Shown: positions 20,936 through 56,405 of the stretch, piece after piece
How the letters are laid out: every line of letters begins with the position of its first letter
Numbering within the stretch: position 1 is the first letter of the stretch
Assembly: GCA_964019425.1 (NCBI GenBank)
Contig: OZ025782.1
Span: 248,001 to 312,000, forward strand
Direction of reading: 5' to 3'
DNA: 64,000 bases
From: Flectonema sp. DT1601
Lineage: Eukaryota
Position numbers and translations under genes: made by a program
The notes under the pieces: model-generated
Databases searched by the model: none
What the model was told of the DNA's origin: nothing
Seen by the model: the letters and a program-made list of their open reading frames with translations, nothing else

Positions 20936-22847
20936 TTAGTTCTTGCTGGCCTTTAGTTCCGAGCAGAATTCCTGTTTTTTTTTTTTTTTTTTTTTTGAGA
21001 GTCTAAAAAAAAACATGACAAGAGAATCTCCTCAGATACTTCTGACATATCAAAAAGCAACGATTATAACATACGGATAGTACTTTAAGAATAGCATCGT
21101 GTGACCTCTCACATGTTCGTGGAGTTGTCGTCGGTCTCTCAGACTGGAAGACTTGTGCGAGAGCGCGAGGAACAGTAGCTGAAGTGCTGGATGTCAGTTC
21201 TTTGTATGTTGCAATCACGTCATATGGCTTTAGTGAAGCAGCTGATTCACCACGAAGACCTTCTTGAACTGCATCAGGGAATTTCGCAAATGAAGCTGTC
21301 GATGCCAAAATAATCGGAACAACAGATTCCCTCGTCTCAATATAGTCATTCATGACTTTGTATGCGACAGCTGTGTGAGTGTCGAGAAGGTAGTCATGAG
21401 ACTCCTGAACTAACTTGATAGTTTTCAAACATTCTTCTTCAGTGCAGTATCCGGAAGAAAACGATATCTTCAGCTCTTTGAGTATGCCTTCAGACACTGT
21501 GAAGTGTTTATTCGTATCTAATTCTTGCATCAAACGAGAAACCTCAACAGTATCCCCCCCAGATAGTAAATATAATAATCTTTCAACGTTGCTTGATTTC
21601 AATATGTCAATACTTGGTGATGCTGTCGGTGTCAATCCCTTTTCTCTGATATCGTAGACGCCCTTTTCAATAAAATCAGTCAAAACATTATTCACATTGG
21701 ACGCGCATACTAATTTTCGAATTGGAAGACCGGATAGCTTAGCGTAGTAGGCACTCAAGATATTTCCAAAATTACCAGTTGGGACGACAACGTCAATCTG
21801 ACGTTTGGATTCGTTGTCGGAGTGAGGATCAACCAGACCCTTTGAAATCAGATGAGAATAGCTGTAAACATAGTAGACAATTTGTGGTAATAACCTCCCC
21901 CAATTTATACTATTTGCACTCGATAAAACTGATCCAGAATTACTTAATAATTCCGACCTGTACGAATCATCTGTAAAAATCTTTTTTACTGTCGACTGAC
22001 AAAAATCAAAATCAGCATCGACTCCGAGAATCCTAACGTTTCCTCCATCGTATGAGAGCATCTGTTGACGTTGGACTTCTGAGACTCCGTCTTTCGGGTA
22101 CAAAACTAATACTGCTATTCCCTTTTCTTGCATGAATCCGCTAATTGCCGCCACACCTGTATCTCCAGACGTTGCTGCAAGAATTACATACTGAGACTCA
22201 TCTCCAGAGATAGACTCAGAAAAGAATTTTGGAAAAAGTTGAAGGGCGAAATCCTTAAAAGCTGCAGTAGGTCCATGCCATAATTCCATGACGTGGATTG
22301 TTGGATCTGCTCCTTTGGGAGTTTTCAGGACACAGATTTCGTCATCGTCCCAACGTTCAGGTGAGTAGGCGCGTGAAATAAGCTCGCGAAGCCTTGCAGG
22401 TTTAAGCTCAGAAGTAGAATTAAACGATTCTAGAACGTACTGTGCGCACTCTCTGTAGTGTTGTCCAGATAAAAGTTTGAAATCATCAGATGTGAATTTC
22501 GGAATTGACTCAGGGAGGTATAATCCTCCATCTGTAGCTAAACCTGATTTCACAGCCTTTAAGAAATCAACTTCTACTCCACCACTTCCTCTGGTTGAGT
22601 GAAACCACTTTGACTGTTGGACAGAATGAAGTATTCTGTTTGCTGTAATCTCATCGTCTTCAGTTTTTATTCTTTTCAATCGAATGTTGTAGTCGATAGT
22701 CTGTGTTGTTCCTTCAGTCTCGATAAACACACACATGCCTCCATCTTTTTCACACTGTTCCTTGTCGTATGCTGCAAATTTTCCCGATATCTTCTCATTT
22801 AATTTCTCTATCACCGCGTTGCTTGCACCTGCTATGTAGATCGTCAT
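20936..22847 (-). CDS. thrC: Threonine synthase (PLP-dependent); intron 20972-21074
   Basis: GLATDGGLY, HGPTAAFKDFALQ, ATSGDTG, SANSINWGR and PTGNFGN motifs; splicing gives ...LKVLS-EFCSELKASKN*. Confidence 0.92.
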
Positions 22848-23301
22848 TCTTTATTTTTTTTTCCTCTCTCTCTTCAAGAAAAAAAAAGAAATTCATTAAA
22901 AAAAATGGTCACTTAAAAAATATTTTTCATTCTTTTTTTTTAGAAGCTAGCAAAAAAAAGAGAGAAAAAAAACATGCAAAGAGAGGGAGAGAGAGACACT
23001 CACATGACGAATACAGGAAATCAGTGAGAGGCCCTGTTGCAACAGGCTGGATAAAGTCTCTGCTGAATAAATCACGTCACCATAGCAGGGAGCTATGGAG
23101 AAATACAAGAATAATAACAATTCAGATAAAAGCCTCATATCTTTGTTGATCACAGACAGTATTACTGAGCGCACACAGGGGGAAATAGATAAATCATTTT
23201 TGACAATAGTAAATAATCGGCTCTTAAAGAAAAAAAACACGTTTTTTTGTTTCCCACAGAATAATGTAAGTAAGGGAAGAAAAAAAAAAAAAAAAAAAAA
23301 A

Positions 23302-24282
23302 TCATCTTATCAAAACACCCTCAGGAACAGGATAACCCCATTTTTCTCTAAGCTGAGTGATGGTGATAGTTTTCTTATCATTAGTTTTGTCATCGGCGTA
23401 TGCCCCAGATAATTTCATACCAGAAAGCATTTGTTTGATATTATCCATAGTACCCATGTATCTCGGATCAGGTTGATGAGATTTCGGTTGCCATCTGTTA
23501 TCACAAGAAAGCCTAACGTGTTTTGTTATGTTAGTTGTTGACATGTGAAGTGTGTGCATTCCGAATACGATGATATCCCCTGCGAGGTAATCAGTGCAGG
23601 TCCATTGACCACCAAATTCATTTGTTATTTCTATTGGATCCATTGAGAACCATCCAGTTCCATCAAGATTATCTTTTTCATGATCAAGACTACCATATGT
23701 TTCCTGAAGCTTACTAAAGTGCTGACTTCCCTTACACATTGCAAGTGATCCCATGTCCATAGGTATGTCTCCAATAGGAATCCAACAGGTCATTAATTCT
23801 GGAGATCCACGTCTCATGTAGACAATGTCGTAATGAACTCCTGTGTAGCTTCCTGTTGAGACGCCACGTAGCCACTTGTAGTCGAATGAGATGACCTCTT
23901 GGTTGAATATTTTGGTAAAAATATTTTTTATAACTGGATTTTCAAGAACATTTATAACTTTAGAATTATGTGTAAACTCATTGTATCCTTCCATAAACGG
24001 AACACATCCAACCCCACAATTCTCTTCAAGTACCGCGTCAGTTGCTTCTCCCTTTATGATCCCACCAGCATCAAAAAACTTATTCAGTATGTATTCTCGG
24101 CATTCAAGTACCGCATTTCTGTCTAACACGCCGTCTAAATAGGCGTATCCGTCTTCAATGATGGCTTGTCGCAGGGAATCGAACTTGCCATTGCGTACCA
24201 TATCACCCCTTTTGGCCATTGGTTCTAAGTAGCATCCCTCTCCGAAGGACACATCTGAGTTTCCGAATCGTACTTGGCGCAT
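23302..24282 (-). CDS. Phytanoyl-CoA dioxygenase (PhyH) family Fe/2OG dioxygenase
   Basis: HYD...TCWIPIGD...AGDIIVF..TLH..S..RLSCD.R motifs. Confidence 0.85.
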   Translation of the reverse strand: MRQVRFGNSDVSFGEGCYLEPMAKRGDMVRNGKFDSLRQAIIEDGYAYLDGVLDRNAVLECREYILNKFFDAGGIIKGEATDAVLEENCGVGCVPFMEGYNEFTHNSKVINVLENPVIKNIFTKIFNQEVISFDYKWLRGVSTGSYTGVHYDIVYMRRGSPELMTCWIPIGDIPMDMGSLAMCKGSQHFSKLQETYGSLDHEKDNLDGTGWFSMDPIEITNEFGGQWTCTDYLAGDIIVFGMHTLHMSTTNITKHVRLSCDNRWQPKSHQPDPRYMGTMDNIKQMLSGMKLSGAYADDKTNDKKTITITQLREKWGYPVPEGVLIR

Positions 24283-25879
24283 TTTTTTTTTTGGGGGGGG
24301 GTTTCTGAGTGTTGGATTATGTTGTTATATTTCATATAAATACTGAATTTCACCTTTTTTTTTTTTTTTTCCACAATCTATTCTTTTGAGACAGCTCCGT
24401 AATAAGAATCACATCTCACTAAATACCAGACTAACTGATGCGTCGTATTGTATTGTTGTTGGGGAGGTTAAATGTTTGAATTTGTAAAATACAACTGTTT
24501 TTTGTATCACATTAACATAAAACGATAATTTAACAAATCCGTTAAAGGATACAGTGAACTACGGTGATGCTTAACTTAGCCTTTTAAAGTAACTATTTAG
24601 CCTCTATTTTCCCTCATCATCAATATGGTGTAGAGACTTACTGATGGGTTTGTATTGAACTATTGTTGGGGGGGAAGACTGTTTGATTGGTTTCATACGA
24701 ATATAAATCTCTCTGTATTGTATCAGAACTCAATAATAAAATTAAAAAACTCATGACACAAGTGACTAAAATGTTAATACAGGCTAACACTCTGCAATTG
24801 ACGTACTTGCTCTACATTATAATCAATGTTTCTAACTGTTGGGGGGAAGAGTATTTCTTTTTTTGATATACTTAAAGCAGATTTAAAACAAAAAAAAAAA
24901 AAAATATATATTCGCGAAACGAAAACAGAGAGAAAAGATATTTGAACTTACCAAATTCTATTAAGAAAAATAAATACCTGTCACGTACTGCAGTAGAGAA
25001 GAATATCAAACTTATTGTTATTGTTTTATCAACAGCAAAGGAAACGTTTTTTTTTTTTTGATTCCAATTCCTATTCATGCGGATTCCAAATAAAGCAACA
25101 AAGTCAACTGCTCCAGAGAAAACTTTAAAACTATTCAGATAAGCCTTTTCAAGGCATTTTTTTTTTTTTTTCACTTTCCGAGGCCAGATTAATAAGAGAA
25201 CTTTAAAATTAAAACATATTTTTTTTTACTTTTTTTATTGAAGTCAGGGAAAGTAAAAAAAAAAAGTATCGAAGTATTTTTGCAATTATCGAAACAGCGC
25301 TGTGGTGATGGTATTTTTTTTATTTGAATCAGAAACGGAGGTGAAAAAAAATCTCCAAAGTTCTGATTTACTTTACTTTACCTTTATCACGATTTGAATC
25401 ATCATGAAAAACCAATAAAAAAAAAAAAAAAAAAAAAAAAAAGGGTTTTTTTTTTTTTTTTTTTTCTTGAACAATAACCACAATTCTATTCACTCATTTT
25501 ACGTAGCATTTCATATCACAGCATAAACCATAAAGGATGATTGTGGATTTAAAAATCAGAATGAAAAAAAAAAAAAAAAAAAAAAAAACACAGAGTGAAA
25601 AAATATCAGCTCTCTCTCTCTCTACTAAAAACAGCAGTGGAGTAACAACGACTCAACAAATAGCCGAAAACATGCTGTTTTGGGGTGTCAACTATGTCTC
25701 TGCTTATTGAGATGAGATTACATTCTAAGAAAAAGAAAACTCAAAAAAAAAAAAAAAAAAAAAGGGCAGCCAGACTGGCTTCGGGACGATAACGCGCGAA
25801 GCTGAATGGGAAAAAGAAACTTGGTAGAACAGATATTTTCGCATGCAATACACCAACAGCACCAGATAGATGAAACAAT

Positions 25880-26944
25880 CTACTTCAACACAGCCAATCC
25901 AACAACAAGAACAACAACAACTACAATGATAACACAAAGGATGATTAGGCACATTTTCCTGTTTTTTGTTGATTTTTTTGATTTTTATAATAAACGTACC
26001 AATAAATGAAAAAAAAAGAGAAAAAAAAACATACTTCCTACTCCGCTCGCTTATCTTACGAGCTTCTGCTGTTTCTTTTCTTCCCTTGTGTACAAAGGTT
26101 GTGGCTCTATCAACATTGCTGCGAATGTCATTAAGCAATTCCCCTTGTTCTGCTACGAGGACTGCCATGTCAACAAATATTTGACGAAGCTCTTCCAGTG
26201 CAGTTTCTATTTTGTGGATGTCTTTGCGCATTTCGACAACTTCCTCAAGAGTGGTTGCAGCGATCTGTTTTTTTTTTTTTTTTGTTGTTGTTGTTGTTGA
26301 CATAAAAAAAAGATTATTAGAAAGCTTTAGAGAGAAAGTGTTAATCATACCGCCATTTTATTGCTTGAGAAAATTTGACTTTCCTGACCATTTTCCATTA
26401 CATCTTGAGTCATTTTTTCAACATCTTCTTCAGAGACTGACTGATGTGAGAATTTAGTTTTTATTCTCCTCTTAATTGTTTCTTTGTATTTCTCTTTGTT
26501 GCTTTGTTCGACTTGTTGAAAATTTGTAAGAGCTGCAACGAACTCTTGACGGAGAAGCATGTGCTGATTTTCCTGAATTCTTATTTCGGCTGGATGCTCG
26601 CACTCTTGCCGTTTTGCTTCAGTTGTGAGTTGTTGCATTTTATCAAGAGATGATTTTACACTTTGGCTCTCATCTTTAATTTTATCATGAAGGCTTCCAG
26701 CTTCTTCTCGAAGCGCCATTTTCTGACCATCATCAGTAGAGCAGTGTAGGTTGTTGTGAGTCGTGTCTAGTTTTGCAGTCCAATTTTTCATATTTTTTAT
26801 TTTTTGATTAACTTCAGCTACGATATCATAAAAAGCATTCAATCCACTACCTCCTTCCTGTTCATCTTCAGGCGGCAAGTCTACAGCTACATGCTCAGGG
26901 GCTAGTTCAGCCTTGAACTGTGGCAGTAAATCAACGGTACCCAT
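25880..26944 (-). CDS. Syntaxin (Qa-SNARE, plasma-membrane type); introns 26265-26350 and 25959-26034
   Basis: Habc helices, SNARE motif (ELRQIFVDMAVLVAEQGELLNDI); spliced C-terminal TM KKMCLIILCVIIVVVVVLVVGLAVLK*. Confidence 0.9.
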
Positions 26945-27297
26945 AATAGTATATTACCCTATTGGTGTAAAATTTAGGGGAACAAAAAATTTTAAAAAGA
27001 AAATTCACAAACTGCTATATAACCTATATAAATCATTCTCCCAATGAAAAAAAACCTTTTTTGACCCCTGCTTTGAGAAATAATAATCAAAATCATCCAT
27101 TTTTGATGAAGTCAGACATATCATGGCACCCCACGAACAAAGTTCATAAAGCAGGGATGTGACATATTTTTTTTTTTTCGTATTTTTTTTTTTTTTGATT
27201 ATTTTTTTTTTTCCCTGCTGGTTGAAAACTCCTATTGCTGTACGGCCATCGCTAAAAAGAACACTCGATGACTAACAAGAAAAGAACAACAACCAAA

Positions 27298-27777
27298 TTA
27301 GACCTTGTAAGCCTTGAGCGGGTCGAAGAATTCTGGACGAAGGTCAACGATGCTCTTCTGCTTCTTGATGATGCAAGCGGTTCTTGGCTGGTTGGCAGGA
27401 ACTCTCTTCACTCTCTGCTTCTTCTCCTTCTGAAGACCGGCGTTGGTGGCGATTCTTCTCTTCAAGTCATCCTGGCACTTCGACTTTCTAACGTGCTCAA
27501 CTCTGACATTGATTCTCTTTCTGAAGACCTTTCCGTTGTGCTTCTTGTTTACAATAACTCCGACAGCACGTGGGGTGACGTTCCATACGATTCCAGTCTT
27601 ACCCTGGTACACCTTGTGCGGAAGCGACTTCTGGATAGCTGGGTCGGCACAGATGTTGACGTAGTCTCCTGCTTTGTACTGGGTCAAGTATCTGGTCTGG
27701 TTTGGCATACCCTTAGTGCCAAAGGTCTTGGAGAACAAGTTCCTTGTTCCCGCACGGTAACCATAGGAGTGAACCAT
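27298..27777 (-). CDS. RPL21: 60S ribosomal protein L21 (eL21), copy 1
   Basis: GYRAGTR..F, PHKVYQGKTG, KRINVRVEHVRKS. Confidence 0.95.
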   Translation of the reverse strand: MVHSYGYRAGTRNLFSKTFGTKGMPNQTRYLTQYKAGDYVNICADPAIQKSLPHKVYQGKTGIVWNVTPRAVGVIVNKKHNGKVFRKRINVRVEHVRKSKCQDDLKRRIATNAGLQKEKKQRVKRVPANQPRTACIIKKQKSIVDLRPEFFDPLKAYKV

Positions 27778-27923
27778 TTTGACGATTTACAGCCTGGAAG
27801 GAAAAATAATTAATATCAGGGGAAGGGGACTACTCAATGAGAACACTCTTTACTACTTGATTGTTAACTTCAACACCATGACCATTATTTTCACTTTTTT
27901 TTGCGAAATACTTAACACACAAA

Positions 27924-28403
27924 TTAGACCTTGTAAGCCTTGAGCGGGTCGAAGAATTCTGGACGAAGGTCAACGATGCTCTTCTGCTTCTTGATGATGC
28001 AAGCGGTTCTTGGCTGGTTGGCAGGAACTCTCTTCACTCTCTGCTTCTTCTCCTTCTGAAGACCGGCGTTGGTGGCGATTCTTCTCTTCAAGTCATCCTG
28101 GCACTTCGACTTTCTAACGTGCTCAACTCTGACATTGATTCTCTTTCTGAAGACCTTTCCGTTGTGCTTCTTGTTTACAATAACTCCGACAGCACGTGGG
28201 GTGACGTTCCATACGATTCCAGTCTTACCCTGGTACACCTTGTGCGGAAGCGACTTCTGGATAGCTGGGTCGGCACAGATGTTGACGTAGTCTCCTGCTT
28301 TGTACTGGGTCAAGTATCTGGTCTGGTTTGGCATACCCTTAGTGCCAAAGGTCTTGGAGAACAAGTTCCTTGTTCCCGCACGGTAACCATAGGAGTGCAC
28401 CAT
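27924..28403 (-). CDS. RPL21: 60S ribosomal protein L21, copy 2
   Basis: Identical protein. Confidence 0.95.
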   Translation of the reverse strand: MVHSYGYRAGTRNLFSKTFGTKGMPNQTRYLTQYKAGDYVNICADPAIQKSLPHKVYQGKTGIVWNVTPRAVGVIVNKKHNGKVFRKRINVRVEHVRKSKCQDDLKRRIATNAGLQKEKKQRVKRVPANQPRTACIIKKQKSIVDLRPEFFDPLKAYKV

Positions 28404-28711
28404 TTTGTGATGAAGTAACTGTGGGGGAATTTTTTTTTTTTCATTCTCAGAAACAATGCATGCCCGTCACTCAGACTTCTTCTTCAACACCTGACTTGAC
28501 TATTCTTTTTTTTTTTTTTTTTTTTTTTTTGAACTCACTTGGTACATATTTTTTTTTGCTTTTCATTTTTAATTTCCTCCCTAATACTTTCAACTAGTTT
28601 TGAGTAAGAGCAACAGAGCTGCCTACTATAAAACTAATTTTATCACAAAAGAAATGCAAAGCAATAGACGTCCAGCCCCAAGTCGGAGCCAAGTGTCGCA
28701 CAAAGGCGAAA

Positions 28712-29191
28712 TTAGACCTTGTAAGCCTTGAGCGGGTCGAAGAATTCTGGGCGAAGGTCAACGATGCTCTTCTGCTTCTTGATGATGCAAGCGGTTCTTG
28801 GCTGGTTGGCAGGAACTCTCTTCACTCTCTGCTTCTTCTCCTTCTGAAGACCGGCGTTGGTGGCGATTCTTCTCTTCAAGTCATCCTGGCACTTCGACTT
28901 TCTAACGTGCTCAACTCTGACATTGATTCTCTTTCTGAAGACCTTTCCGTTGTGCTTCTTGTTTACAATAACTCCGACAGCACGTGGGGTGACGTTCCAT
29001 ACGATTCCAGTCTTACCCTGGTACACCTTGTGCGGAAGCGACTTCTGGATAGCTGGGTCGGCACAGATGTTGACGTAGTCTCCTGCTTTGTACTGGGTCA
29101 AGTATCTGGTCTGGTTTGGCATACCCTTAGTGCCAAAGGTCTTGGAGAACAAGTTCCTTGTTCCCGCACGGTAACCATAGGAGTGCACCAT
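28712..29191 (-). CDS. RPL21: 60S ribosomal protein L21, copy 3
   Basis: Identical protein. Confidence 0.95.
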   Translation of the reverse strand: MVHSYGYRAGTRNLFSKTFGTKGMPNQTRYLTQYKAGDYVNICADPAIQKSLPHKVYQGKTGIVWNVTPRAVGVIVNKKHNGKVFRKRINVRVEHVRKSKCQDDLKRRIATNAGLQKEKKQRVKRVPANQPRTACIIKKQKSIVDLRPEFFDPLKAYKV

Positions 29192-29715
29192 TTTGTGATG
29201 AGGGAGTAACTGAGATAAAGAAATACAATTAAATCCACCTGTCAGCTGAATGAAAACAGCTGAGTACCGGATAATATGACCGGCGTTAGTAGGATTCGTT
29301 GCTTTCCTACTACGCTACGATAACAAAACTGATAGGATAGTTACAAAGGCAAGATCAAGAAAAGCTAAAGCCACTTGATGACCTTTTGTTACTACCGAAG
29401 ACCATCTCTTATCACTTGGAATTATTATTTAGTCAAGTTCCATAACAGAACTGAGAGAGGGAATCACAAGGATAATTAAGTGTTTCTTACAACGTTAAGT
29501 CTTCAGGTCAGGTTAACTACAAAGACCCTCAAAGAACAACAAGAAACAAATTAAAATAAACTGAAAAGAGGGAAGGGGGGAGTAAAAACGAATATACAAG
29601 TCTGAAAAATAACAACAAACAAAAAAAAAAGAAAATAATAATAATAATAAACCACTACTACCATAAGAAAGTTACGTGTACGGATTGTTATGAAAAAAAA
29701 ACAGAAAGGGATTTT

Positions 29716-35676: not shown

Positions 35677-36831
35677 CTACAGAGGTATTGGAATCCTGCC
35701 TACTTCGTTCTTCACAAAGTCCCAACTAGACTTTGCTGCAGCAGATTGATAAGCTGCGCACCTTAATGATCCAGGGAGGTCATGGTCAATAAGAGAATTA
35801 GCGATCCCAAGAGAAGCATCTTCGTTGATCTTTGCTGACCAATAAGATGTTTTATGTTTACTTGGTGGTAGTAGTATAGGACCGTCCTCCATCTGTTCAA
35901 TATGTGGTTGGAGACTTAACCTATGAAACAAGAGATGAGGAATCACAGAACGAACATCTTCAGGTGTCGCAAACTCTCGACTAGTTGTGACAGATATATA
36001 AACACGGAGTAGTTTAACCGAGTTTGATAGTAGTGAGTGACTTGGTATGCTTAGGCCAACATCAGGATGTTGTCGACAGCTTCTTATACATTGCAAGAAA
36101 TACCTATGAACAGCTGACTGTATAAACACACCACTCTGGGAACTGCTCGGTAATATTTTAACTATCGCCTCCCCAGGATGGTTTTCAAGAAGTCTTTGAG
36201 CCTGTGTCGCCAATGGAGGTGGTTTCTCAGGTGTCGTTCTGGCTGCAACAGTAAATCGCTCTCTCAAACTGTGATGCATTTTTAGTAATTTTTTATCACT
36301 TACCGTTCCTAACACTGTTAAGTGATAACAAACTCTTTCACCAGCTCCATACACCTCACCATGTTGTAGGACTCCTATCAAACAGGATTGGACTTCTGGA
36401 GATGCGCGGTGAAGATTTTGAAGAAAAACTGGTCGGTTCTTTGGATGCATAGAAGTAGCACCTCTCGAACCTCCTGAAGACGCATCTGGTGATGGGAGAT
36501 CATCATCCTTTTGTAAATCAGCAGCATACAACCACTGAGCAACATCCATAACAGCTGTGCTTTGTGTTATAATCAATGATGGCATAATTCCACAGTGAAG
36601 ACCACATTCTATCTGACTTTTCAGCCTTTCATTTTCAACACGTAATTCCTCATCACCTAACTCCTCATCTTCTTCCAACGAAAACAACATATGTCCACAC
36701 TGACCTGGTTCTCTTAGTAGCAGTGAGGCAGCGCATAGATTTAAGTAAGACATATCATGTTGCATTGTGGCACTAGTCGCAAAGACGAGATACCTGTTCC
36801 TGTTTAGAAGATACCACAAAGAGATGAACAA
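35677..36831 (-). CDS. Degenerate MoxR/ChlI-like AAA+ protein (start uncertain)
   Basis: LQNLHRASPEVQSCL and ATPEDVRSVIPHLLFHRL lid motif; no Walker A seen. Confidence 0.6.
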   Translation of the reverse strand: MFISLWYLLNRNRYLVFATSATMQHDMSYLNLCAASLLLREPGQCGHMLFSLEEDEELGDEELRVENERLKSQIECGLHCGIMPSLIITQSTAVMDVAQWLYAADLQKDDDLPSPDASSGGSRGATSMHPKNRPVFLQNLHRASPEVQSCLIGVLQHGEVYGAGERVCYHLTVLGTVSDKKLLKMHHSLRERFTVAARTTPEKPPPLATQAQRLLENHPGEAIVKILPSSSQSGVFIQSAVHRYFLQCIRSCRQHPDVGLSIPSHSLLSNSVKLLRVYISVTTSREFATPEDVRSVIPHLLFHRLSLQPHIEQMEDGPILLPPSKHKTSYWSAKINEDASLGIANSLIDHDLPGSLRCAAYQSAAAKSSWDFVKNEVGRIPIPL

Positions 36832-37130
36832 CTGGTGTAGTGCTGCACCTCTATCAACACGAACATTACTTAATGTTGTAGACTGTGAATTCTGGTTAGG
36901 TTATGTCTTCACCGTGAAAAATTGTCGAATTTTTTTTTTTTTTTTTTTAAAATGATCTTTGAGGATATTGATGAACCAGTAACTGATGATTAACGAAAAC
37001 GAATGCACAGCCAAACATTCCGTGGCTGAAAATAAAACAGTTTTTTTTTTTAAATAAACGCTCTCTAACAAGCATGCTGTTTAACTCGTGTAATATATGA
37101 AAGAATACAATACAGAAACACACAACGGTA

Positions 37131-38229
37131 CTAAAACTTTGGTCCTCGACGACGACCAGTGTACTTTGTGTTGGCTCTGACGTTAACTCCCTTCTTTGCT
37201 TGTTTTTCCTTCTTCTCTATGATCCATTCTCGTGAGTATTTGTTTGTCTTGCGACGCTGTTTTATTATTTTTATTATATAGGAAGTATAAAGGTGTCGTC
37301 AAGTATTCTTTTATTAGGTCTTAATAGTACTTGTTGAGTGGAGGAGGGAAAAATAAATAAATTAAAAAAACCTTTAATTTCCCTCCACGTTTTTCAGACT
37401 CACGCATTTGTACCTTTCTTTTTGATTTTGTTCTGGTAGTGCCAGCTGTCATTCTGCTGCCAGCCATTGAAACTCTGTCAGGTGAATCGTTGCTGAGGTA
37501 GTCTGACAGAGAACTCTCTTCCTCGTACTCCTCGTCTTCTTCGTCGTCACTGTCCATGTCTTCATCGCTATCAGATTCCATTCCTGTTTTAGCTCTGATG
37601 TTCGAAAGTTCACTCTGTGGTCCGGTTGATAAAACTAAAAAATGCTTCTTAGCTCTCGTTGAATGAGGATAATCGACAACTAAACCACCAGAGAATCCAG
37701 ATCGAGTAGCCGCATGTACAATCATATTAGACTGGTGTACGTTAGCAGGATAGAATTGAAGAACTGCTTTGGCTCCACGTCGTAGAACCATGTATAGAGA
37801 ATCAAAAAACTTTTTCAAACGCAACTGAGGTATGTGTTCTTTTCTATCAGCATTGCACAACCATTGGATTGCTGAGACGCTAATCGCTCCATCGAATGAA
37901 CCCGCTCTGAATGGAAGGCCTAATCCCATGTCGTGTTGCAACATATCTCCGTCGACCTCTCTCTTTTGCGCAGCGTGAATCATATCGCGTGAGATGTCAG
38001 TTCCTATGAATCGATGACCCATCGTTTCTAAAGCCTCTCCTGACAATCCTGCACCACAACCAATATCGAGCATGAGACAACTAACGTCGTCAGGTAGATT
38101 TAATAATTCAATAGCTCTCATTGAAAGTTTTGTTTGTATGTACATCATTCTACTGTTTCTCATGTAGTTATCAGCTCCCTCTTTGTCATAAATCATCTCC
38201 GGGGGCGCGATTAATTCTGGACGCGACAT
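37131..38229 (-). CDS. BUD23: 18S rRNA m7G methyltransferase Bud23/WBSCR22; intron 37257-37371
   Basis: MSRPE..APPE, LDIGCGAGLSG, DYPHSTRAKK; spliced tail REWIIEKKE...TKYTGRRR. Confidence 0.93.
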
Positions 38230-38659
38230 TTTTGATTTAACTGTTTTTTTTTTTCTCACTTACTACTTAAACAATCTGATTAGTAGATCTGAGAGGGGAA
38301 GAGAATTGAATTTTTTTTTTTTACAATTAATAAATATATAAACTAGAAAGTGTGTTGACCAATTATCAAAAATCTGCTTAATAACGACATATTTTTTTTT
38401 TTTTTTCAAAAACTGACATCAAAGAATACAATGAGAGAATTTTTTTTTTTTTTTTTTTCCCAGAAATAAGTCTTTCGGATACTGAAATAAATCATCGCTT
38501 ATAAATCACAATAAAAGAAAGCGGACGGGGGGTGGGTTTTACACGTCTTCCTATGGGCTCCACCTAATAAAATAATTCAGGTTTGAGACAGCTGCCTCAT
38601 GGGTACTGAATATTTGGATGGTTAAACCTGAGGGAAAATACAAGGAAAGAACAACAACA

Positions 38660-38695
<36 letters not shown>

Positions 38696-39045: not shown

Positions 39046-39136
39046 TTATGCACCAGATCCAGATCTGCCGCTTCTTCTTGGAGACAGGCTGTGTCTAAGC
39101 CTGCGAACTTCTTTAAGCGATCTAGGTGAGAGTGCT

Positions 39137-39169
<33 letters not shown>

Positions 39170-40207
39170 CCGTGAAATGTTTTATCCTCAGTAAAAACAA
39201 ATATACATACGAGCATCAATAAAACTAATAACTCCCTCAAGGTTGGCAGCTCCTTCCATGTTGAAACCCGGAGTGGTTGCAGTGGTTGAGTATGCAGTAA
39301 GAGCCTGTGGAGATTGCGACGCTACAGTTGTCGGGTTCAAAAAACCCCCAACCGGAGACACCACTGCCGGTGCAGTAAAATTAGCTGCCGGGGACGTTGC
39401 GTCAACCTTATCAGCGTGTGCCTGATATATCTGAATAATCTTTATCCAATTTCTAGCAATTGATTCCAATGACAAAGTTGGTTGAAATTCTGATAAAACT
39501 TCATAGAGTGCTTCTGGTGACTGAATGTGAAGCTGAGTACCTGTCGTAAGGGCATTACGTGAGGCCTCAACCTGCGACAAAGAACAGCGCATCTTCTGCT
39601 TTAAGAGGTTAATCGAATCGATTTGAGTGTTCGAAATCGGAACAGGTGGAGGAACAACCGCCGCTGGAAGACCAGCCAACATAATAGGAGGTGGTGGTGG
39701 TGGCATTACTGCCGCAGCTACCACAGGTTCTGGGATTGGTAGAATACCAACACTCGCTGCTGTGGCTATTAATCTCAAGTTGTGAGGAGGGATGTCGAAA
39801 ACATCTGCAGCATCTCTGTGGTGAAATTGAACTAAAACCTTATCTGATTGATGTCCCATAACTGTTCCTCGAAGACCGTTGTACTCAACTGAGTTTTGAA
39901 GACCGAGAGCCTCGATTTCACATCCAACAGGAAACATAATCCTACCAGCGTCAATACCACCCGGAAGAAGTGAACTCTCTACAGCAGTTGGCATCATTGA
40001 CGTTGCAGCTACTGGAGCAGCAGTCATAACACCAGCAGTCGCTGCTCCAGATTCTCCGATGCTCAATTGCTGATGCTCTGTTCCAGCTCTGTATCCCGGT
40101 TGAACCTTGCAGCTCTTCTTCAATCTGTGCAACGATGTTGGAGACAGCGGCTGATCAATAAAAGAAATCACCTCGTTGATAAATTGTTGGTTTTGTGGAG
40201 AATCCAT
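39046..40207 (-). CDS. Hypothetical protein with KOW/SH3-like domain and repeated VISFID.PLSP motif; intron 39135-39210
   Basis: GLQNSVEYNGLRGTV..HNL; splicing restores VISFIDAPLSP, matching the N-terminal VISFIDQPLSP. Confidence 0.75.
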
Positions 40208-40600
40208 TTTCTTTAAATATGTTATTATTTCCCTCCTTTTTTTGCTTCTTTGCAGTAGTGGAAAGTTGATAGCTTACAAGCTGGACAGAAAAAAAAAGAG
40301 AAATAATTGTTTTGATATTTTGTTTAAAATAAAAATAAAAAAACAGATCATAACTACACTTCACATATTTCAATGAAGAATACCTGTTCAACTGAATAAT
40401 AGTTTAGTTATTTTTACAAACATTTTGACTCCAAAACACTGAGCAATAGCACATTTATGTAGGCTCAATGAACAGCTATTTTGGGTGCTGTTTTAACATG
40501 TGAGCGAACACAAAAAATAGATAACTACGACAACAACCAGATAATCAGAACAGAAATAATAAAAGAAAAAGAAAAAAGTAAATAACCCTCATCAAAAGAA

Positions 40601-41636
40601 TTATTCCATTGAATCATCTGTGTCGTCAGCTGAATCGAAAGTGTTTGCCGAAAAGTGACTCCCTCTCGACGCTCTTGTTGGAAATACTTTCTTTCGATCA
40701 TTAGCACGTTGACTACGGTAACGAGATATTTCATCTACCAGACGGGCATTTAATTTTTTGACTGCCCGGAATTGCTCTCCGCCTTCCCATTCTTGGATTG
40801 CCAATAATAACAAGGACAGGTATGCTGCAAGAGTTCGAGGATCAGAAATAACATCCACACCCGTAGCTGGTTTCGGTATTCCGAGTCGTTGAGCACTCAC
40901 AGTGAGAGCTTTTCTTATATTTTCAACTCCTTTCGAAGGAGACAGATTATGAAAATCAATCCAACTAGAAGAGCAATCGTGGAGGAGAGAACAGAGAGCG
41001 AGACCGTTAGACCAACCTGAACGAAACTCATCGAGATTCTGCGACGAGTACGACGTACCGGAATCGAACCTGCGCTTCACTCTGAGCCACATTTCCTGTT
41101 GAAATGTAGAATCAATACCCCCCAAGTTAGCATTGCTGCTGAAGTCAGCAGTGCTAATGGTCGGCATGCCAGTCCCTCGATCTTCTAGTTTCTTTTTTAC
41201 AACTCTCCTCTTTGCTTTCTCAGGTTGAGTTGTGTCCGCTCCCGGAAATGAATCACTAGTAGACTTAACAGGACTGTGTCTTGTTACGACTTTTGTCTTT
41301 ATTCTTCTCTTTGATGTTCTCGTAGGCGAAGAAGGAACTCGGATCACTTCTAAAACTGGAGCATCTTCTAACTGTCTGTCTCCAGTAGGCCATTCTGCAT
41401 CGCCCTCAGCATCAGGATCCTTGGTTGGGGATGTTGGGACCTGTTGGGTAATTACAGTCAGTTATGTGAAAGAAAAAACTAATAAACGTTAATTCACATA
41501 CCTGTTGTAGATATTTCAACTCGTTTCTTGAAACTCTACTGCCGTCAAGACTGAACTCAGAAGGGTTGAGAAGCTCTGTAAAGATCTCCAGAATCTGATT
41601 GGTTTTTGTTACGTTTCCTTTTTCTCTAAATTTTTC

Positions 41637-41667
<31 letters not shown>

Positions 41668-42741
41668 AACTTGCCGAGTACTCTTCACCGTCGAGATATT
41701 ATAAATTGGATTTCCAGTGAGGGTAATCGACATTAATTTTTCCAATCTCGCAAGAGACTGGAGTTCTTCGAATTCCTCAACCTGACAATTTTGAGCATTC
41801 AACACAATCAGTGAACTAAGCCATGGTCCTATTCCCTTAAGAGACGAAATCGGATTTCCAGAAACATCCAAGGACTCTATCACTTTAATATGAAGGTTTC
41901 CGTTATTTTCATATAAAAAGTCAAGGCTCTCTATGTTGTTATTTGAGATGTCGAGTGTACCTAGAAGAGGTAGAGATCCTAATTTTGAAACGTCAGAAAT
42001 TTTATTTTGAGATAGACTCAGAGCTTGTAAACTAACAAGTGACTGAATATCAACAGGGAGTTCAGTCCATCCGCAATTTATAATTTCTAAACGTACTAAA
42101 TTCAAACAATATTTCGACAACAAAGACGAACTAACAATCGATTCCGTTGCAGTAACTCCCAGTAAAGTCGAGGATAGCCCATGCAGAATATTACTAGCAT
42201 TGCAGGACACCATTTCAATTTCGGTACACTGTGGAAACACTTTTGCCGGCAAGTCATCAGAAAAAGCAGCTTCATCATCAAGAGTGAGCGACGTAACATT
42301 ATCCCCAGACTTAACGTGTATGACCTGAATTCCAGTTATTTGAAGCCTTTCTGCCTTTGGAAATAGTTCCAAGTTGATTTCTGAAAGCTCCGTTTCATCA
42401 GTCTGTGATGCATCTTTTTTAAAACGGATTGCTTGCAATTTTCCAAAAAAATCTGTCACATCATTTAAAGGTGTGTGCTGCTGCTCCTCAGAGCTGCAGT
42501 GTCTCTTTTGTTCTCTTGATAAGGCGTTTATGTGTCTCGCTGTTTTTGTTAGTAAGGCAAATGAGTTCTTGCCTTGTAAAACATCACCTCCACCATTTTT
42601 TATGAATCTCCGCAATGCAGCAACAGTTTCGTCAGCATTGTCTTCAGAAGAACGTTTGTCTTTCTTGAGAGAAGCGAACAGATTTCTTCCCTTGGAAAAA
42701 ATATCTTTTATATTCGTGTTCTCATCAGGGTGATCAGCCAT
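40601..42741 (-). CDS. Leucine-rich-repeat protein with C-terminal calponin-homology domain; introns 41595-41667 and 41441-41501
   Basis: LxxLxLxxN repeats with LRRcap; SGWSNGLALCSLLH CH motif; three exons join in frame. Confidence 0.8.
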
Positions 42742-43829
42742 AATTATGTTGTGTTCCCCCCAACCTGTTGTTTTGTCTATTATAAATAAACATCTTTGAT
42801 TAAGGTATTTAGTATCATATGTAAAGTAATCATCTGCATGATTGCTTTTTTCTCCCTTATTTTTTTTAAAATACCAATGCTTTAACTTGCATGGGGTGGG
42901 TGTGATAACTTATTATTTCCTTTACCTAATTTATTATCTGTTTATTTTTTTTTTTTTTTTTAAAAAAACTATTTTTTATTATTTTTTTTTTTTTTTTTTC
43001 CCTCTCGAAGCGGCATTCGTAAGGGTATAAGAATCCATCCGCATGACCTGATTTTTTTTTTAAAAAAAAAAAAAAAAAAGAAAAAACCAACCAACAGAAA
43101 AAAAGAAAGAAAAAAAAGGATGGGGATGGCAGTAAGCGAACCGCCGCTAACAGAATCTATTTTTTTTTTTTTTTTTTTTTTAAATTTGTCAGCCAAAAAA
43201 AAAAAAAAAAAAAAAAAAAAGAAAAAATAATAAAGTTAGAAACTCAATTTCAGTAAGAATCCAAAAAAAAAAGACTGCCAACAGCCCAGGAGGAAAAAAA
43301 AAAAGAGGAAAAAAAAGCGCGGGTAGAGAGAAAAGATCTAATAAAGAGCAAGAAATCAGAAGCCTTGAGTGATACTGCAGCCATTTCTTACGGTGGTCTT
43401 GTTTTTTTTTTTTTGGTTTTTTTCTCAAATGGGGGTGGAGAGCTAAACTACAGTCCCTCAGCGGAATAAGTAAACCCGTCATACACCCCTGCGATACCAA
43501 TTTAAATGGGATGACCAAAAAAAAAAAAAAGAAATAATCACGCTAACAGGGGGAATCGAAAAAAGGAAAAACAGCATGACAATCTTAAAAGCAATCAACT
43601 CGAAGCCGAACACTTGCCCAGCCACGACGGTTCTTACGACCGCATCTGGAAAATAAAAAAATTACAGCGCAAAAGCAATAAGGAAAACAAGGGGTGCAGG
43701 AGGGGATCTTCCTGTTACCAAAGTGAGCCTACCCACGAGAGTACTATAATAAGCTATAACTGATTACGGATCTACTGGTCAGATGACTTGTTTTTCCTGT
43801 TTGTTTTGTTTTGGTTGTGGTGTTGTATC

Positions 43830-45536
43830 TTAGAAGGGTATTAGTCGTGGTACATACTTTCCGCCCTTCTTGCCTCCCTTCTTACCTCCCTTTCCCTTTC
43901 CTTTTCCCTTGGAACCCTTTCCAGTGTGCTCTTTGTTATCAGATTTTTCCTTCTTCTCCTCAGTCTTTACCGGCTTGGTTCTCCAGTCTTCGTACTTTTC
44001 GTCCATCTTGGCGGTGGCAAACCACTCCTTTCTCTTTACGAGTTTCTCGAGTGCGTCTGATGCCTCTACGATGGTGAGAGGGGTGTCAACTTTGAGGTCG
44101 TCGAAGGCGTGGAACTTATCAACCGTGTGCTGGATTGAAGAAGAAGCTGGTTTGTCATCCTTCTTTTCTTCTTCCTTCTTCGCTGTCTTTCCCTTTGCTG
44201 CTGGAGGTTGGTGCTTGGAAACAGGGGCGGCCTTAACTGGTTTCTTAAATTTCATAAAGTCATCAGAGTCGTCACCCTTTCCGATAACTTTACATGTTCC
44301 TTTAAGCTCCATCATCTTCTTCATGGCTTCTTCCATCTTCTCCTTGTCAGTCTTTTGCTTTTCAACTTCAGTTGAAGATTTCTTACCAAGAGTTCTCTCT
44401 AAGTAGTTGATAAGGTGATCGCATAGAGTTCTCTCGTCCTTCCATGGGTCTTGCTTTTTAATTTCAGCAACTTCGGCATCAATGACAGCCTTCTCTTCGT
44501 CACGTTTCTTCTGTCTTTCGAGCTTCTCGCGGTAGTCCTTGTCGGTTTCCTTGCGTCTTTCTTCAGCTTCCTGACGACGGACTTCGGCTTCTTCCTTGCG
44601 CTCGGCTTCCTTGGATTCCCATTCGACGAGGTCTTCTTCGTGTTGAACTTTGCGTTTCTTGTATGAGATCTTTCTCTGGACCATGTTACGCTGCTTTGTT
44701 GAGGATTCTAGGGAACGCTCAGCCTTCTTTAATTCCTGTTCACCACCGTTGGTAATGTCATCAAGTTCAGCCTTGAGTTTGTTAATCTCATTGTTGACAA
44801 CCTTCACTTCAGCTTTCTTCTCATCAGCAACTGAAGTAACCTTACTGACTTCACCCTTCTGCTTATTTATTTCATCAGATTTCTTAGCAAGAGCAATGTC
44901 GTACTTCTCCAATCCCTTAAGGTTCTTCTTGATCTGTTCAAGATTTCTAAGCTGAACCATAAACTGACGCTCTGACTTAGCAGAGAGTTTAGTAGTCGAT
45001 TCGTGGTCTTGCTCAACCTTCTTAATCGCCTTTACGACGTCTTCAGAGCTGTAGGTGATGTTTTGGGCTTCTTTCTTGCTCTGGAGTTCTTCTCTTATTT
45101 TCTTGTGTTCGCCGATGATTTCCTTCTTTCTGTCCTGAGCAGCGGTGACCTGGCTGGAGATTCCGTTGAACTCCTCAGAAAGAATCGCCTTCTCAGCAAC
45201 CTTCTCATCGATCTTCTCACGTACATCAGAGATTATCTTGTCTTTGGAATCGAAGTCGACATTGTCTTTTGCTTTCTTCAGACCTTCGACCTTTTCCTTC
45301 TTTGATTCGATGTCATCAGCGATCTTCTTCTCTTGTTCCTCTAACTCTTCTATGCTTTTAGATTCTTTTTCCATATCCTGATCAATATTGAACCATGGTC
45401 TTCTTGAACCTCCTCCTTTGTAACCACTCTTTCCACCTTTTCCTCCCTTCTTTCCACCCTTCTTACCCTTTCCGGTTCTCTCAGTCGTTGGCTTCTCCTC
45501 GGTGGAGGTAGGCTTCTGGTCAATCTCTTCAGACAT
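43830..45536 (-). CDS. Bfr1/proton-pump-interactor-like coiled-coil protein
   Basis: Long coiled coil; SAKSERQFMVQLRNL, CDHLINYL and HTVDKFHAFDDLKVDTP; GKG-rich ends. Confidence 0.7.
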   Translation of the reverse strand: MSEEIDQKPTSTEEKPTTERTGKGKKGGKKGGKGGKSGYKGGGSRRPWFNIDQDMEKESKSIEELEEQEKKIADDIESKKEKVEGLKKAKDNVDFDSKDKIISDVREKIDEKVAEKAILSEEFNGISSQVTAAQDRKKEIIGEHKKIREELQSKKEAQNITYSSEDVVKAIKKVEQDHESTTKLSAKSERQFMVQLRNLEQIKKNLKGLEKYDIALAKKSDEINKQKGEVSKVTSVADEKKAEVKVVNNEINKLKAELDDITNGGEQELKKAERSLESSTKQRNMVQRKISYKKRKVQHEEDLVEWESKEAERKEEAEVRRQEAEERRKETDKDYREKLERQKKRDEEKAVIDAEVAEIKKQDPWKDERTLCDHLINYLERTLGKKSSTEVEKQKTDKEKMEEAMKKMMELKGTCKVIGKGDDSDDFMKFKKPVKAAPVSKHQPPAAKGKTAKKEEEKKDDKPASSSIQHTVDKFHAFDDLKVDTPLTIVEASDALEKLVKRKEWFATAKMDEKYEDWRTKPVKTEEKKEKSDNKEHTGKGSKGKGKGKGGKKGGKKGGKYVPRLIPF

Positions 45537-45892
45537 ATGGGTTAATATATTTATATAAAGGTTTGATTACCTGGTGAGTCATTGAGATTTATAACTTATT
45601 CAAATATAACACTTTGATATGGAAAAAAATTATTTTCGCAGTTGGGCTCTACAATTGTTGTCATTGTCTGAAATTTCCTTCAAAAAAGAGAAAGAGGGGG
45701 GGAAAATGGAAAAATGAAGTGATAAAAATAGCCAATACAAACTACTACATAAAAAAACTGTGAGCAGTGTTACAGTTGTATGTGAGAGAAATATTAACGA
45801 CGTTGTACCCGCAGGGAACACTACAACAGAGTAGCGGGGATGGGTCAATAAAAATTGAACAAAACGACAGAGTAATAATTTTATAATAAATC

Positions 45893-47561
45893 CTACTTCT
45901 TCTTCTTCTTTTTGTTCTTCTTTTTTGCTGTGGCAGTTTCAGGTGCGACTCCAGCACCTCCACCACCACCCAGCTGACTTGCCATTTGAGCCAAACCGCC
46001 TGCTCCTCCGGCTCCACCTAAAGCTGCTGCGAGAGCGCCTTGATCAGTATTAGCAAATTGCTGCATCATGTTTTGAAGACCTCCGACACCTCCTAGTTGT
46101 TGGATTACCTGTTTTAATTGTGTTGTTTTATTGTCTCGATTGGTCTTTTTTTTTTGATAGTAGGAAATAACATACTGAAGGGTCCAAGGCACGGGCTAGT
46201 TGTTGCATGCGCATGTTACCCTGTTTGCCTGTCAGTGCCGTTGGGTCTTCTAATTTTTTAAGATCCATCTTCTGTAAGTTTTTTACCATTCCTTCAAACT
46301 TGACATAAGCCATCATAAGCTCTCGTATTTCCATTGGGTTCCGACCAGAACCCATTCCTATGCGACGCTGTCTCTCTGGAGTCATAAGTTTTCTGACATT
46401 CGGATGGTCTAATTCTTTATTATTCATACTGTCCATTAAGACCATGAATATTTTCATTTTTTGTGAGCTGTGCTCTCCATCAACGTTTGCTTGTCTCATC
46501 CCCGGAAGCATGTCCATCAACTTCCCCACCGGACCCATCTTCATTATATTTTGAAGATGTCCGTAGAGGTCTCTGAAGGTGAATTCTCCTTCAGAAAATC
46601 TTTGATAAAGCTCGTCGTTGTGAGTGATGCCAGCATCTTTTATTTTATCAAGAAACCCAGCAATATCACCCATTCCTAGTAACTGTTGAAGAAAACCGTT
46701 CGGTTCAAAAGCAGTGAAATCGTCAAAACCTTCACCAGTTCCAATGAAAACGATTGGAGCGTTTGTAGCTGCGACAGCAGATAGAGCCCCACCTCCTTTT
46801 GCATGTCCATCAAGTTTAGTGATGATGACTGATCCAATATCGACTGTGTCTTTGAATGCCTTTGCCTGATCGTGAGCTGCTTGACCAATAGATGAATCCA
46901 TTATAAATATGATATCATCTGGAGTGACTGCTGCTCTTATTTGATCCATTTCATCGAAGAGTGCTGATTCTTGTTTGTGTCTTCCAGAAGTGTCTACTAT
47001 TATTATTTCACATCCCTCACTTTTCATCTTCTCAACTCCATCTCTTGCTATCACTGCTGGATCTGTTTCTGTTAGTGATCCATGAAATGGTACTTTCGCT
47101 TTTGCTGCGTTTTGTTTTAGCTGATCGTATGCTCCTGCTCTGAATGTGTCGGCGCATATGAGTCCAACTTTCCAATTTTTATTTTGATGCCAAAGAGCAT
47201 ATTTCGTGCAAGTTGTAGTTTTTCCAGATCCCTGAAGACCTACGAACATAATAATATTTGATTTTCCCCTTACAGGTTTGAACGGTTTCACTCCCGGATC
47301 TAAGAGACTCCTCAGCTCCTGAAAAACAACATTTTTAATAAATTTTTGTTTGCTGAACCCGGCAGGTATGTCGTCGAGTTTCAATTTTTCAGTCATTTTA
47401 TCCTTTAAGTATTTAACCAGTTTCACGTTTACGTCAGCGATGAGAAGGGCATTGCAGATATCACCAATGACTTTGGCAACCAGTTCATCATCTATTACAG
47501 CAGACTTACTAACAGAGACCAGAGCTTGGTTTATTTGATCTCCTAGCTCTGCGAGAACCAT
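45893..47561 (-). CDS. SRP54: Signal recognition particle 54 kDa subunit; intron 46109-46175
   Basis: [41 protein letters not shown] domain. Confidence 0.95.
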
Positions 47562-47783
47562 CTTGTTAGATGTCTATAGGGGAATGTTAGTTTTAAAAAA
47601 AAAAAAAAAAACAACAGAACTTTCAACTTTATTAAACGAACTACTGAGAAAAATAATAAAAAAAAAATATATTTAAAAAAAAAAAAAAAAAGGAAACAAA
47701 GAGATCTCTCCCCTCCCATCCATGTGTAGTAAGTACTATGAAAATAAACTTCGCAAAACATAACTGCAAAAAGGGGGATTTGG

Positions 47784-48159
47784 TTAATCAGAGTCGTCAT
47801 CTTGTTGACCAAATCTGTCTAAGTCTTTCACAGCCTGTGATTTAAATGTTTTTTTTATAAAATAAATAATCTAAAACAAATCTTTGTATAAGATTCACAC
47901 AAACCTCGATATCTTCTTTACGGGACAACTCGTCTTGAGACTGAGCTGAAGAACGTCTTAATGGTGGTTGTTGTACTGATTGTATATTCTGAGATCTCTG
48001 TTGCGGAGCAGCTCCAACTGAAGGTTTCTGTCTGGCATTTATCGCTGCGACGTTTCCGTTGAGTCGATTTTCAAAATCAGCGATATCATCTTTACATTTT
48101 TCTGCTTCGTTTACGGAGTCGAATTCATATGTCTCGTTTAAAGAATTATTAGTGTCCAT
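47784..48159 (-). CDS. Small hypothetical protein; intron 47835-47904
   Basis: Spliced ORF of 101 aa ending RKEDIE-AVKDLDRFGQQDDDSD*. Confidence 0.6.

Positions 48160-56372: not shown

Positions 56373-56405
<33 letters not shown>

Follow-up and report, generated by a model that had tools for sequence, protein, structure and literature searches.

Short cis-introns with A-rich acceptors in a one-stranded gene cluster attributed to a diplonemid

The cis-introns of diplonemids share their transcripts with a second mode of splicing. In Diplonema papillatum, gene clusters are one-stranded and co-transcribed, and essentially all mRNAs carry a spliced leader (PMC10161547). Among the RNA-seq-supported introns described by Thakur et al. 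2025 (PMC12621601), A is the commonest tract base in Diplonema japonicum, forming "atypical poly(A) tracts," and the A bias of the tract is weak in Lacrimia lanifica and Rhynchopus humris. The same account lists GTATG donors, CAG acceptors, CA-rich motifs, the presence of U2AF1/2, and rare YTRAY motifs (13–16% for most Diplonemidae). Trypanosomes mark their efficient leader sites with U-rich tracts and couple the addition of the leader to polyadenylation; a weak-tract exception has also been described (bioRxiv 10.64898/2026.10.18.760011). Here, we analyze a 64,000-nt stretch of DNA (contig OZ025782.1, positions 248,001 to 312,000; hereafter, the window) that harbors 11 short GT-AG introns with mostly A-rich acceptors, 10 of them without a pyrimidine tract near the acceptor. 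The A-rich acceptor is largely known, as it is already published for the relative D. japonicum (PMC12621601); the window extends it to a second lineage of Diplonemidae.

The window consists of eukaryotic DNA of ~38% GC. With the exception of one open reading frame (ORF) overlying RPL21, all 28 ATG-started ORFs of at least 150 amino acids lie on the minus strand (27/28). Protein similarities place the window as a one-strand gene cluster of a diplonemid (Diplonemidae), near Flectonema, with F. neradi as the nearest listed relative. The first exon of the SRP54 gene shares 87% identity with a transcript-derived F. neradi protein, 70% with Rhynchopus euleeides, 69% with D. papillatum, and 67% with D. 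ambulator, versus 55% or less with the named trypanosomatids. With F. neradi and D. japonicum, respectively, identity is 76% and 60% for threonine synthase and 72% and 38% for the protein of the gene starting at ATG 40207; the value of 60% led us to discard D. japonicum as the source of the DNA. By analogy with D. papillatum, we infer that co-transcribed clusters undergo leader splicing here as well. An Rfam search of the window gave no match, hence no small nuclear RNA within the 64 kb. Searching metagenomes with a diplonemid SRP54 alignment gave identities of 47–60% and no close relative among the best 80 of 516 loci, all of which were kept out of the statistics. On one of these metagenome contigs (L057), a short A/C-rich 5′ untranslated region (UTR) is followed by SRP54 at 55% identity; the start of the contig (L057:1-35) presumably resembles the end of a euglenozoan spliced leader.

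The introns number 11, all on the minus strand and 61–115 nt long, and are spread over eight genes (coordinates are window positions, from donor G to acceptor G). The original prediction had listed these introns and their lengths, omitting the strand, and each is present with GT-AG ends. Junctions in three genes were scored by combining all GT/GC donors within 60 nt with all AG acceptors 30–220 nt further and comparing the spliced products with the transcript-derived F. neradi protein. For SRP54 (ATG 47561, stop 45893), the predicted 67-nt intron at 46175–46109 ranked first of 163 pairs (score 479 versus 134 unspliced). The 76-nt intron at 39210–39135 in the ATG-40207 gene (stop 39046) ranked first of 113 (263 versus 79 unspliced), as did the 103-nt intron at 21074–20972 in threonine synthase (ATG 22847, stop 20936) among 109 pairs (152, with the next pair at 143 and the unspliced form at 91). 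Spliced threonine synthase is 602 amino acids long, the length of the F. neradi protein; a T-run plus TAG site at 21003, 31 nt upstream of the A-run CAG at 20972, fits the homologue worse. Beyond these three introns with exact ends, five are supported by homologue or domain continuity and three mostly by motifs or frame, namely 47904–47835 and both introns of a LamG-domain gene starting at ATG 34064.

In other genomes, the corresponding ORFs end or become aberrant at these sites in SRP54 (P0004, P0005), in threonine synthase (P0126, which appears to read through the intron site), and in a leucine-rich repeat (LRR) gene (P0253, P0254). Because these ORFs break at the same positions, the comparison suggests that the introns are old and shared with other genomes. 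Where P0004 reads through the SRP54 intron that it shares, its sequence abounds in His, Pro, and Thr, which would reflect a C/A-rich stretch. For all four genes looked up, the protein collection held the unspliced ORFs (P0001, P0122, P0242, and P0252). Frameshifting assembly errors at homopolymers could in principle create the appearance of introns, given that long homopolymers are error-prone and that three of the introns come without homologue support. Such an origin is barely credible for 61–115-nt GT-AG insertions whose removal best fits transcript-derived proteins, 9 of which contain an in-frame stop, and at whose positions the ORFs of other genomes are likewise broken. No intron has a length divisible by 3. 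Judged by GT-AG ends in 11/11, the restored protein (three exact, five by continuity), and the extended 5′ splice-site consensus, all 11 are likely major (U2-type) spliceosomal introns.

The donors are as originally predicted: GTATG in eight introns, GTTTGT in two, and GTTTTT in one. Position +4 is T in 11/11 and +5 is G in 10/11, and an exon-end AG precedes all three non-GTATG donors versus 2/8 GTATG donors. Ten acceptors are CAG and one is TAG. Measured at −30 to −4, the A fraction of the acceptors has a median of 0.63 and reaches at least 0.55 in 9/11, versus a median of 0.26 and 24/317 for non-coding YAGs on the sense strand (p = 1e-6). It also exceeds the values for antisense YAGs (0.37, n = 301, p = 3e-5) and exonic YAGs (0.33, n = 747). 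This excess persists for the three exactly anchored introns alone (p = 0.002) and for the seven homology-anchored introns (p = 4e-5). Pooled over the 11 introns, A amounts to 0.75 at −13 to −4 and 0.71 at −23 to −14. The median A+C of the acceptor zone is 0.78 versus a background of 0.44, and G accounts for only 4/220 nt at −23 to −4 versus 14.8% of non-coding DNA (p = 5e-11). The A-runs noted earlier directly before CAG at 20972, 26265, and 39135 measure 22, 16, and 32 nt, and the two acceptors described as only moderately A-rich are so, with A fractions of 0.37 (41441) and 0.44 (32305).

We defined a tract as in fungi (at least six bases without A, at least three of them T; proximal if it ends within 25 nt of the acceptor; PMC5677156). 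A proximal pyrimidine tract is found in 1/11 introns versus 223/314 non-coding YAGs (p = 5e-5), which bears out the claim of A-rich acceptors without polypyrimidine tracts. The accompanying claim of T-rich 5′ halves holds in direction (median T of 0.44 versus 0.37 in intergenic DNA, p = 0.016), but the enrichment is mild. The 5′ halves are much like ordinary intergenic DNA, and the 3′ ends of the introns are the special part. YTRAY occurs within 50 nt of the acceptor in 3/11 introns, and no branch-point consensus was found in the 11.

Homopolymer slippage in an AT-rich genome, together with exclusion of AG before the acceptor, could make the introns A-rich without any function. The sense strand from 19000 to 62100 does contain many runs of at least 10 nt (55 of A and 50 of T), and A enrichment appears before start codons too. 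However, non-coding DNA of the sense strand has more T (39%) than A (30%), an A fraction of at least 0.55 occurs in 11% of 555 intergenic 27-nt windows versus 9/11 acceptors (p = 7e-7), loss of U is not required by AG exclusion, and the bias is genome-wide in D. japonicum. A neutral origin of the A-richness is accordingly very improbable.

To stand in for leader-addition acceptors, we used a composition-blind proxy, the YAG nearest to the ATG, for 21 genes; the set omits two tandem duplicates of the ATG-20336 gene, a retroelement-like ORF, and a gene cut by the window end. These proxies have a median A of 0.30 and a median pyrimidine fraction of 0.63 and differ in both from the cis acceptors (p = 1e-4 and 6e-4). 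A tract lies near the acceptor in 15/21 proxies versus 1/11 cis introns (p = 0.002). When the most pyrimidine-rich YAG within 100–160 nt of each ATG was taken instead, a weak excess over background windows emerged (p = 0.03–0.05), with a pyrimidine-rich YAG at most 130 nt from the ATG in 16/21 genes versus 33/64 background windows (best-score p = 0.03). Thus, cis acceptors avoid U tracts, whereas a need for U tracts at leader acceptors is not shown by the proxies. The proposal that acceptor composition is the code separating cis- from trans-splicing therefore survives in one half: the cis acceptors lack proximal tracts, but the proxies match background, and some are A-rich. The signal is therefore one-sided, with cis acceptors avoiding U tracts, and not a strict two-letter code.

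We tentatively favor, at slightly less than even odds, donor-led recognition of the short GT-AG introns, in which the absent tract keeps them from being taken as leader-addition sites. Recognition would begin at donors that are GTATG or, where an exon-end AG lends support, GTTT(G/T), and that share the invariant T at +4; a T at this position suits direct U6 pairing (PMC11347140). In such an intron, pyrimidine tracts sit in the 5′ half, and the last 20–30 nt are A/C-rich and nearly G-free. U1 and U6 would engage the donor, and the spliceosome would assemble across the 61–115-nt intron. A loosely specified A within the A-rich zone, or immediately ahead of it, would serve as the branch point, and the first YAG beyond it would be used. 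The U2 of trypanosomatids reportedly has no branch-recognition region (bioRxiv 10.64898/2026.10.18.760011). If trypanosomes are a guide, a U-rich tract plus AG would trigger leader addition and coupled polyadenylation in the polycistronic RNA. Because an internal U tract plus AG would risk splitting a gene's mRNA, selection would strip U tracts from internal acceptors.

Several observations weigh against this reading. The proxies equal 218 distant non-coding YAGs in composition (A, p = 0.30; pyrimidine, p = 0.18), and their tract rate of 15/21 equals the background of 223/314 (p = 1.0). Although every intron has a tract in its 5′ half (11/11), this is only marginal relative to background (p about 0.045). 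For the genes at ATG 60157, 45536, 28403, and 24282, the sole YAG below the nearest upstream ATG is less than 50% pyrimidine; for ATG 42741, the two such YAGs are 41% and 52% pyrimidine. The 27 nt before start codons are A-enriched as well (median 0.41), so the U-to-A polarity of the introns is partly general. Donor presence separates the cis and proxy classes as well as composition does, and the two are confounded. The sample comprises 11 introns from eight genes. Finally, the cis acceptors of Sulcionema specki have pyrimidine tracts (PMC12621601), so avoidance is not universal in diplonemids.

The confounding with donors gives room to a second explanation, in which the choice is set by an upstream donor (intron versus outron), leader acceptors may be A-rich, and the A/C zone has no bearing on the cis/trans choice, acting instead as a positive element of the 3′ splice site or as an unstructured stretch, free of AG, for scanning. 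A donor-like motif lies 45–140 nt upstream of all 11 cis acceptors versus 1/71 YAGs within 130 nt of an ATG; with just 10 such motifs across 14,681 intergenic nt, the latter value does not establish a depletion. A-rich YAGs lacking a donor precede 5/21 ATGs, that of RPL21 copy b among them. Flatworms follow an outron rule by which the same acceptors serve both modes (PMC12582326), and CA-rich motifs occur in other diplonemid introns (PMC12621601). A donor-only rule does not by itself account for the loss of U tracts at cis acceptors, when 71% of non-coding YAGs have one, and a pyrimidine-rich YAG does lie near the ATG in most genes. We consider it possible but rather unlikely.

The A-rich sites upstream of start codons deserve individual description. 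The two exceptions flagged by the original prediction are real. The YAG at 42765–42767 (minus strand) lies 23 nt before the LRR gene's ATG at 42741, has an A fraction of 0.48, and shows no donor-like motif 45–140 nt upstream; it could be a leader acceptor or the end of a 5′ UTR intron. We rejected it as the end of a coding intron, as homologue N-termini match ATG 42741. The YAG at 38241–38243 (minus strand; A 0.63) lies 11 nt before the ATG of a BUD23-type gene and has pyrimidine-rich alternatives at 38276 and 38289, the nearest 35 nt further upstream. Further A-rich sites lie at 28419, 24305, 34068, 45571, and 60190, and for 34068, a pyrimidine-rich alternative lies 37 nt further upstream. 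The CAG at 28419–28421 (minus strand; A 0.59), which follows an A-run and a short stretch of pyrimidines, belongs to RPL21 copy b. Likeness to copy a begins at this CAG, and no donor-like motif lies upstream. From this alignment, 28419 is likely the leader-addition acceptor of copy b and the clearest counter-example to a strict code. It is one of three tandem RPL21 genes (27298–29191, minus strand) with coding sequences >99% identical and unrelated spacers, which make a natural test set for leader-acceptor choice.

A strict two-way code would assign a dedicated factor, such as a diplonemid-specific paralogue of the U2AF large subunit, to A/C tracts for cis-splicing and ancestral U2AF to U tracts for leader addition. 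The contrast between cis acceptors and proxies in A content and tracts is what such a code predicts, and a candidate exists in OG0019132, an orthogroup gained in the diplonemid ancestor and annotated as U2AF large subunit beside the pan-eukaryotic OG0001114 (PMC10161547). That label is an automatic annotation, however, and the R. humris column of the table in that source has no OG0019132; the A-rich proxy exceptions and two cis acceptors with only 37–44% A also speak against it. We hold a strict code to be improbable. In the same data set, an orthogroup annotated as polypyrimidine tract-binding protein has 11–32 copies in four diplonemids versus 0–3 in kinetoplastids (PMC10161547).

The U-to-A polarity, present in all 11 introns (p = 0.001), had also raised the idea that U-rich 5′ halves pair with A-rich 3′ halves and so draw donor and acceptor close. 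We compared the folding of every intron with that of 100 dinucleotide-shuffled versions, at both 37 and 20 °C. Ensemble energies were not below those of the shuffles (mean z of −0.31, p = 0.21, at the higher temperature and −0.51, p = 0.12, at the lower), and no intron went beyond a z of −2. Pairing between the first and last thirds reached at least 11 expected pairs in 4/11 introns, which agrees with the idea, but stayed below 3 in the other 7. The three introns with the longest A-runs have 0.1–1.8 expected end pairs, and in two of them, the A-run pairs only with a nearby T-run. T content of the 5′ half does not covary with A content of the 3′ half (rho = 0.21, p = 0.55, 11 introns), a weaker polarity exists between stop and start codons (skew of −0.33 after stops and +0.20 before ATGs), and end pairing is reported to be lower in diplonemids with canonical introns (PMC12621601). 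With no fold signal over shuffles, end pairing was rejected as a general mechanism, and the idea now appears highly unlikely.

The remaining introns, all on the minus strand, differ in how firmly their ends are placed. In the LRR gene (ATG 42741, stop 40601), which also encodes a calponin-homology domain, the exons occupy three frames here, although homologues hold all three in one protein. Its 73-nt intron 1 (41667–41595; A 0.63) contains a T25 run within the 5′ half and is placed by homologues, of which P0255–P0258 align across the junction, whereas P0253 and P0254 diverge or stop there. Intron 2 (41501–41441, 61 nt) has a YTRAY match at −21; it is supported by the joining of exon 2 to the calponin-homology exon in homologues, with exact ends in a poorly conserved linker. 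Domain continuity supports the 115-nt intron at 37371–37257 (A 0.59) of a BUD23/WBSCR22-type methyltransferase gene (ATG 38229, stop 37131), in which an exon-end AG precedes the GTTTTT donor. Exon 1 encodes the methyltransferase and exon 2 matches positions 46–81 of PF12589 (E = 3.2e-11); the donor position is not fixed by homologues. Domain continuity likewise supports the 86-nt intron 1 (26350–26265) of a syntaxin gene (ATG 26944, stop 25880), in which CAA repeats lead into the A-run and an in-frame stop lies one codon inside the intron; exon 1 matches PF00804 and exon 2 the syntaxin SNARE helix (E = 9.1e-12). Syntaxins end in a hydrophobic tail anchor, and the tail of the spliced product supports the 76-nt intron 2 (26034–25959; A 0.78), which begins with a 21-nt pyrimidine run at its 5′ end. 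The product has 300 residues, with a hydrophobic C-terminal tail anchor added by exon 3; alone, exon 3 gave only chance matches among solved structures.

In the LamG-domain gene (ATG 34064, stop 31678), frame and motifs place the 70-nt intron 1 (32663–32594), with a GTTTGT donor preceded by an exon-end AG and the sole TAG acceptor (A 0.78), and motif only the ends of the 103-nt intron 2 (32407–32305). The exon 1 match to PF13385 reaches position 123 of the 151 in the profile. Searched by itself, exon 2 yielded no informative Pfam match and only chance matches among solved structures. A 212-codon downstream frame without Met is readable only if spliced. The 70-nt intron at 47904–47835 (A 0.56) lies in a small gene of no known family (ATG 48159), is placed by motifs and frame only, and has a GTTTGT donor preceded by an exon-end AG; a Pfam search of this gene gave no match, and the intron is the least supported of the set. 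The A fraction of the SRP54 acceptor is 0.63. In the ATG-40207 protein (39046–40207, minus strand), the two ends bear similar short motifs, one of which the intron splits; its last exon weakly matches CFAP410_C, at an E of 0.035 that misses the cut-off, and its named homologues are all diplonemid.

A scan of 31 unannotated donor-like motifs returned four with an A-rich YAG 45–140 nt downstream. One, a 61-nt stretch at 43857–43797 (minus strand) at the end of a coiled-coil gene starting at ATG 45536, has a GTATGT donor and an A/C-rich acceptor (A 0.67) and is missing from the original prediction. It is likely a twelfth intron, in a gene whose BFR1-like label is a lead only, and was excluded from all statistics because composition was used to pick it. 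The other three GTATG motifs with an A-rich YAG downstream, all on the minus strand, are possibly introns: 36269–36352, an 84-nt in-frame stretch within an ORF, and 51747–51820 and 56244–56292, in intergenic or UTR DNA.

Two regularities, both recognized post hoc, concern position and length. All 11 introns fall in the 3′ half of the coding sequence, at relative positions of 0.54–0.98 (2^-11 = 0.0005 under a uniform null), the opposite of what intron-poor genomes usually show, a 5′ bias. Homologues pin down the N-terminus in SRP54, threonine synthase, the ATG-40207 gene, and the LRR gene; elsewhere, short 5′ exons could have been missed. Intron lengths are 3n+1 in 10/11, 3n+2 in one, and 3n in none (10:1, p = 0.012), and 9/11 introns are in phase 0. 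The candidate twelfth intron is 3n+1 as well, although the excess may be chance. A broad generalization, that Diplonemidae sort cis- and leader splicing by acceptor, with A/C tracts for cis, U tracts for leader, two U2AF-like factors, and introns pushed to the 3′ half, is speculative and, in our estimate, unlikely to hold.

The rest of the window includes nested repeats of 0.3–4 kb (86–99% identity) in positions 1–20500, together with three copies of a gene for a 231-amino acid membrane-protein-like product. A 478-codon ORF at 8849–10285, which we take from its motifs to resemble a retroelement reverse transcriptase, had no Pfam match. Two tandem intronless genes for C2-domain phospholipase D lie at 52104–60157 (minus strand), with a domain order that is presumably plant-like. 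At 35677–36900 (minus strand), a 407-codon open frame has its first in-frame ATG 45 codons in (36765) and a weak AAA-lid match, and its start or 5′ exon is uncertain.

On a single polycistronic RNA, diplonemids have to distinguish thousands of internal acceptors from the sites of leader addition. If the composition of the acceptor does sort cis- from leader splicing, this would be a splice-site rule not found in our literature search. A full-text search likewise found no comparison of cis and leader acceptors in diplonemids, although paper supplements may hold one. On the practical side, gene finders that have learned to expect pyrimidine tracts will get these genes wrong.

Among known systems, the nonconventional introns of euglenids and hemistasiid diplonemids have only the idea of end pairing in common with those of the window: they have no GT-AG ends and pair through G/C-rich ends, whereas the introns here are GT-AG in 11/11 without a pairing signal. 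Some fungal introns place a pyrimidine tract on the donor side of the branch site (PMC5677156, citing Kupfer et al. 2004). To our knowledge, these fungi have no leader trans-splicing. Their introns resemble the present introns in being short, with a tract in the 5′ part and an optional tract near the acceptor. They differ in the branch site: Fusarium has a strong CTRAY in 91% (PMC5677156), versus YTRAY within 50 nt of the acceptor in 3/11 here. The kinetoplastid cis introns of PAP1, DBP2B, and RBP20 have GTATG donors, no branch consensus, and unpositioned tracts (PMC11613528) and, like those of the window, sit in a polycistronic context; unlike here, only three genes bear introns, and the available text of that paper reports no A-rich 3′ zone. 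The CA-rich motifs of R. humris and L. lanifica introns (PMC12621601) are echoed in the A+C-rich 3′ zones and CAA repeats of the window, although A exceeds C here, in line with the 38% GC. A close match is to the introns of D. japonicum, from the same family, Diplonemidae, in the GT-AG ends, the GTATG donor (8/11 here), the CAG acceptor (10/11 here), A as the commonest base in the last 20 nt, the rarity of YTRAY, and the lack of strong end pairing. In the text consulted, the account of D. japonicum sets no cis acceptors against leader acceptors and makes no mention of Flectonema. The introns of the window, from another lineage, are longer (61–115 nt versus a median of 41 nt in D. japonicum) and contain pure A-runs of up to 32 nt.

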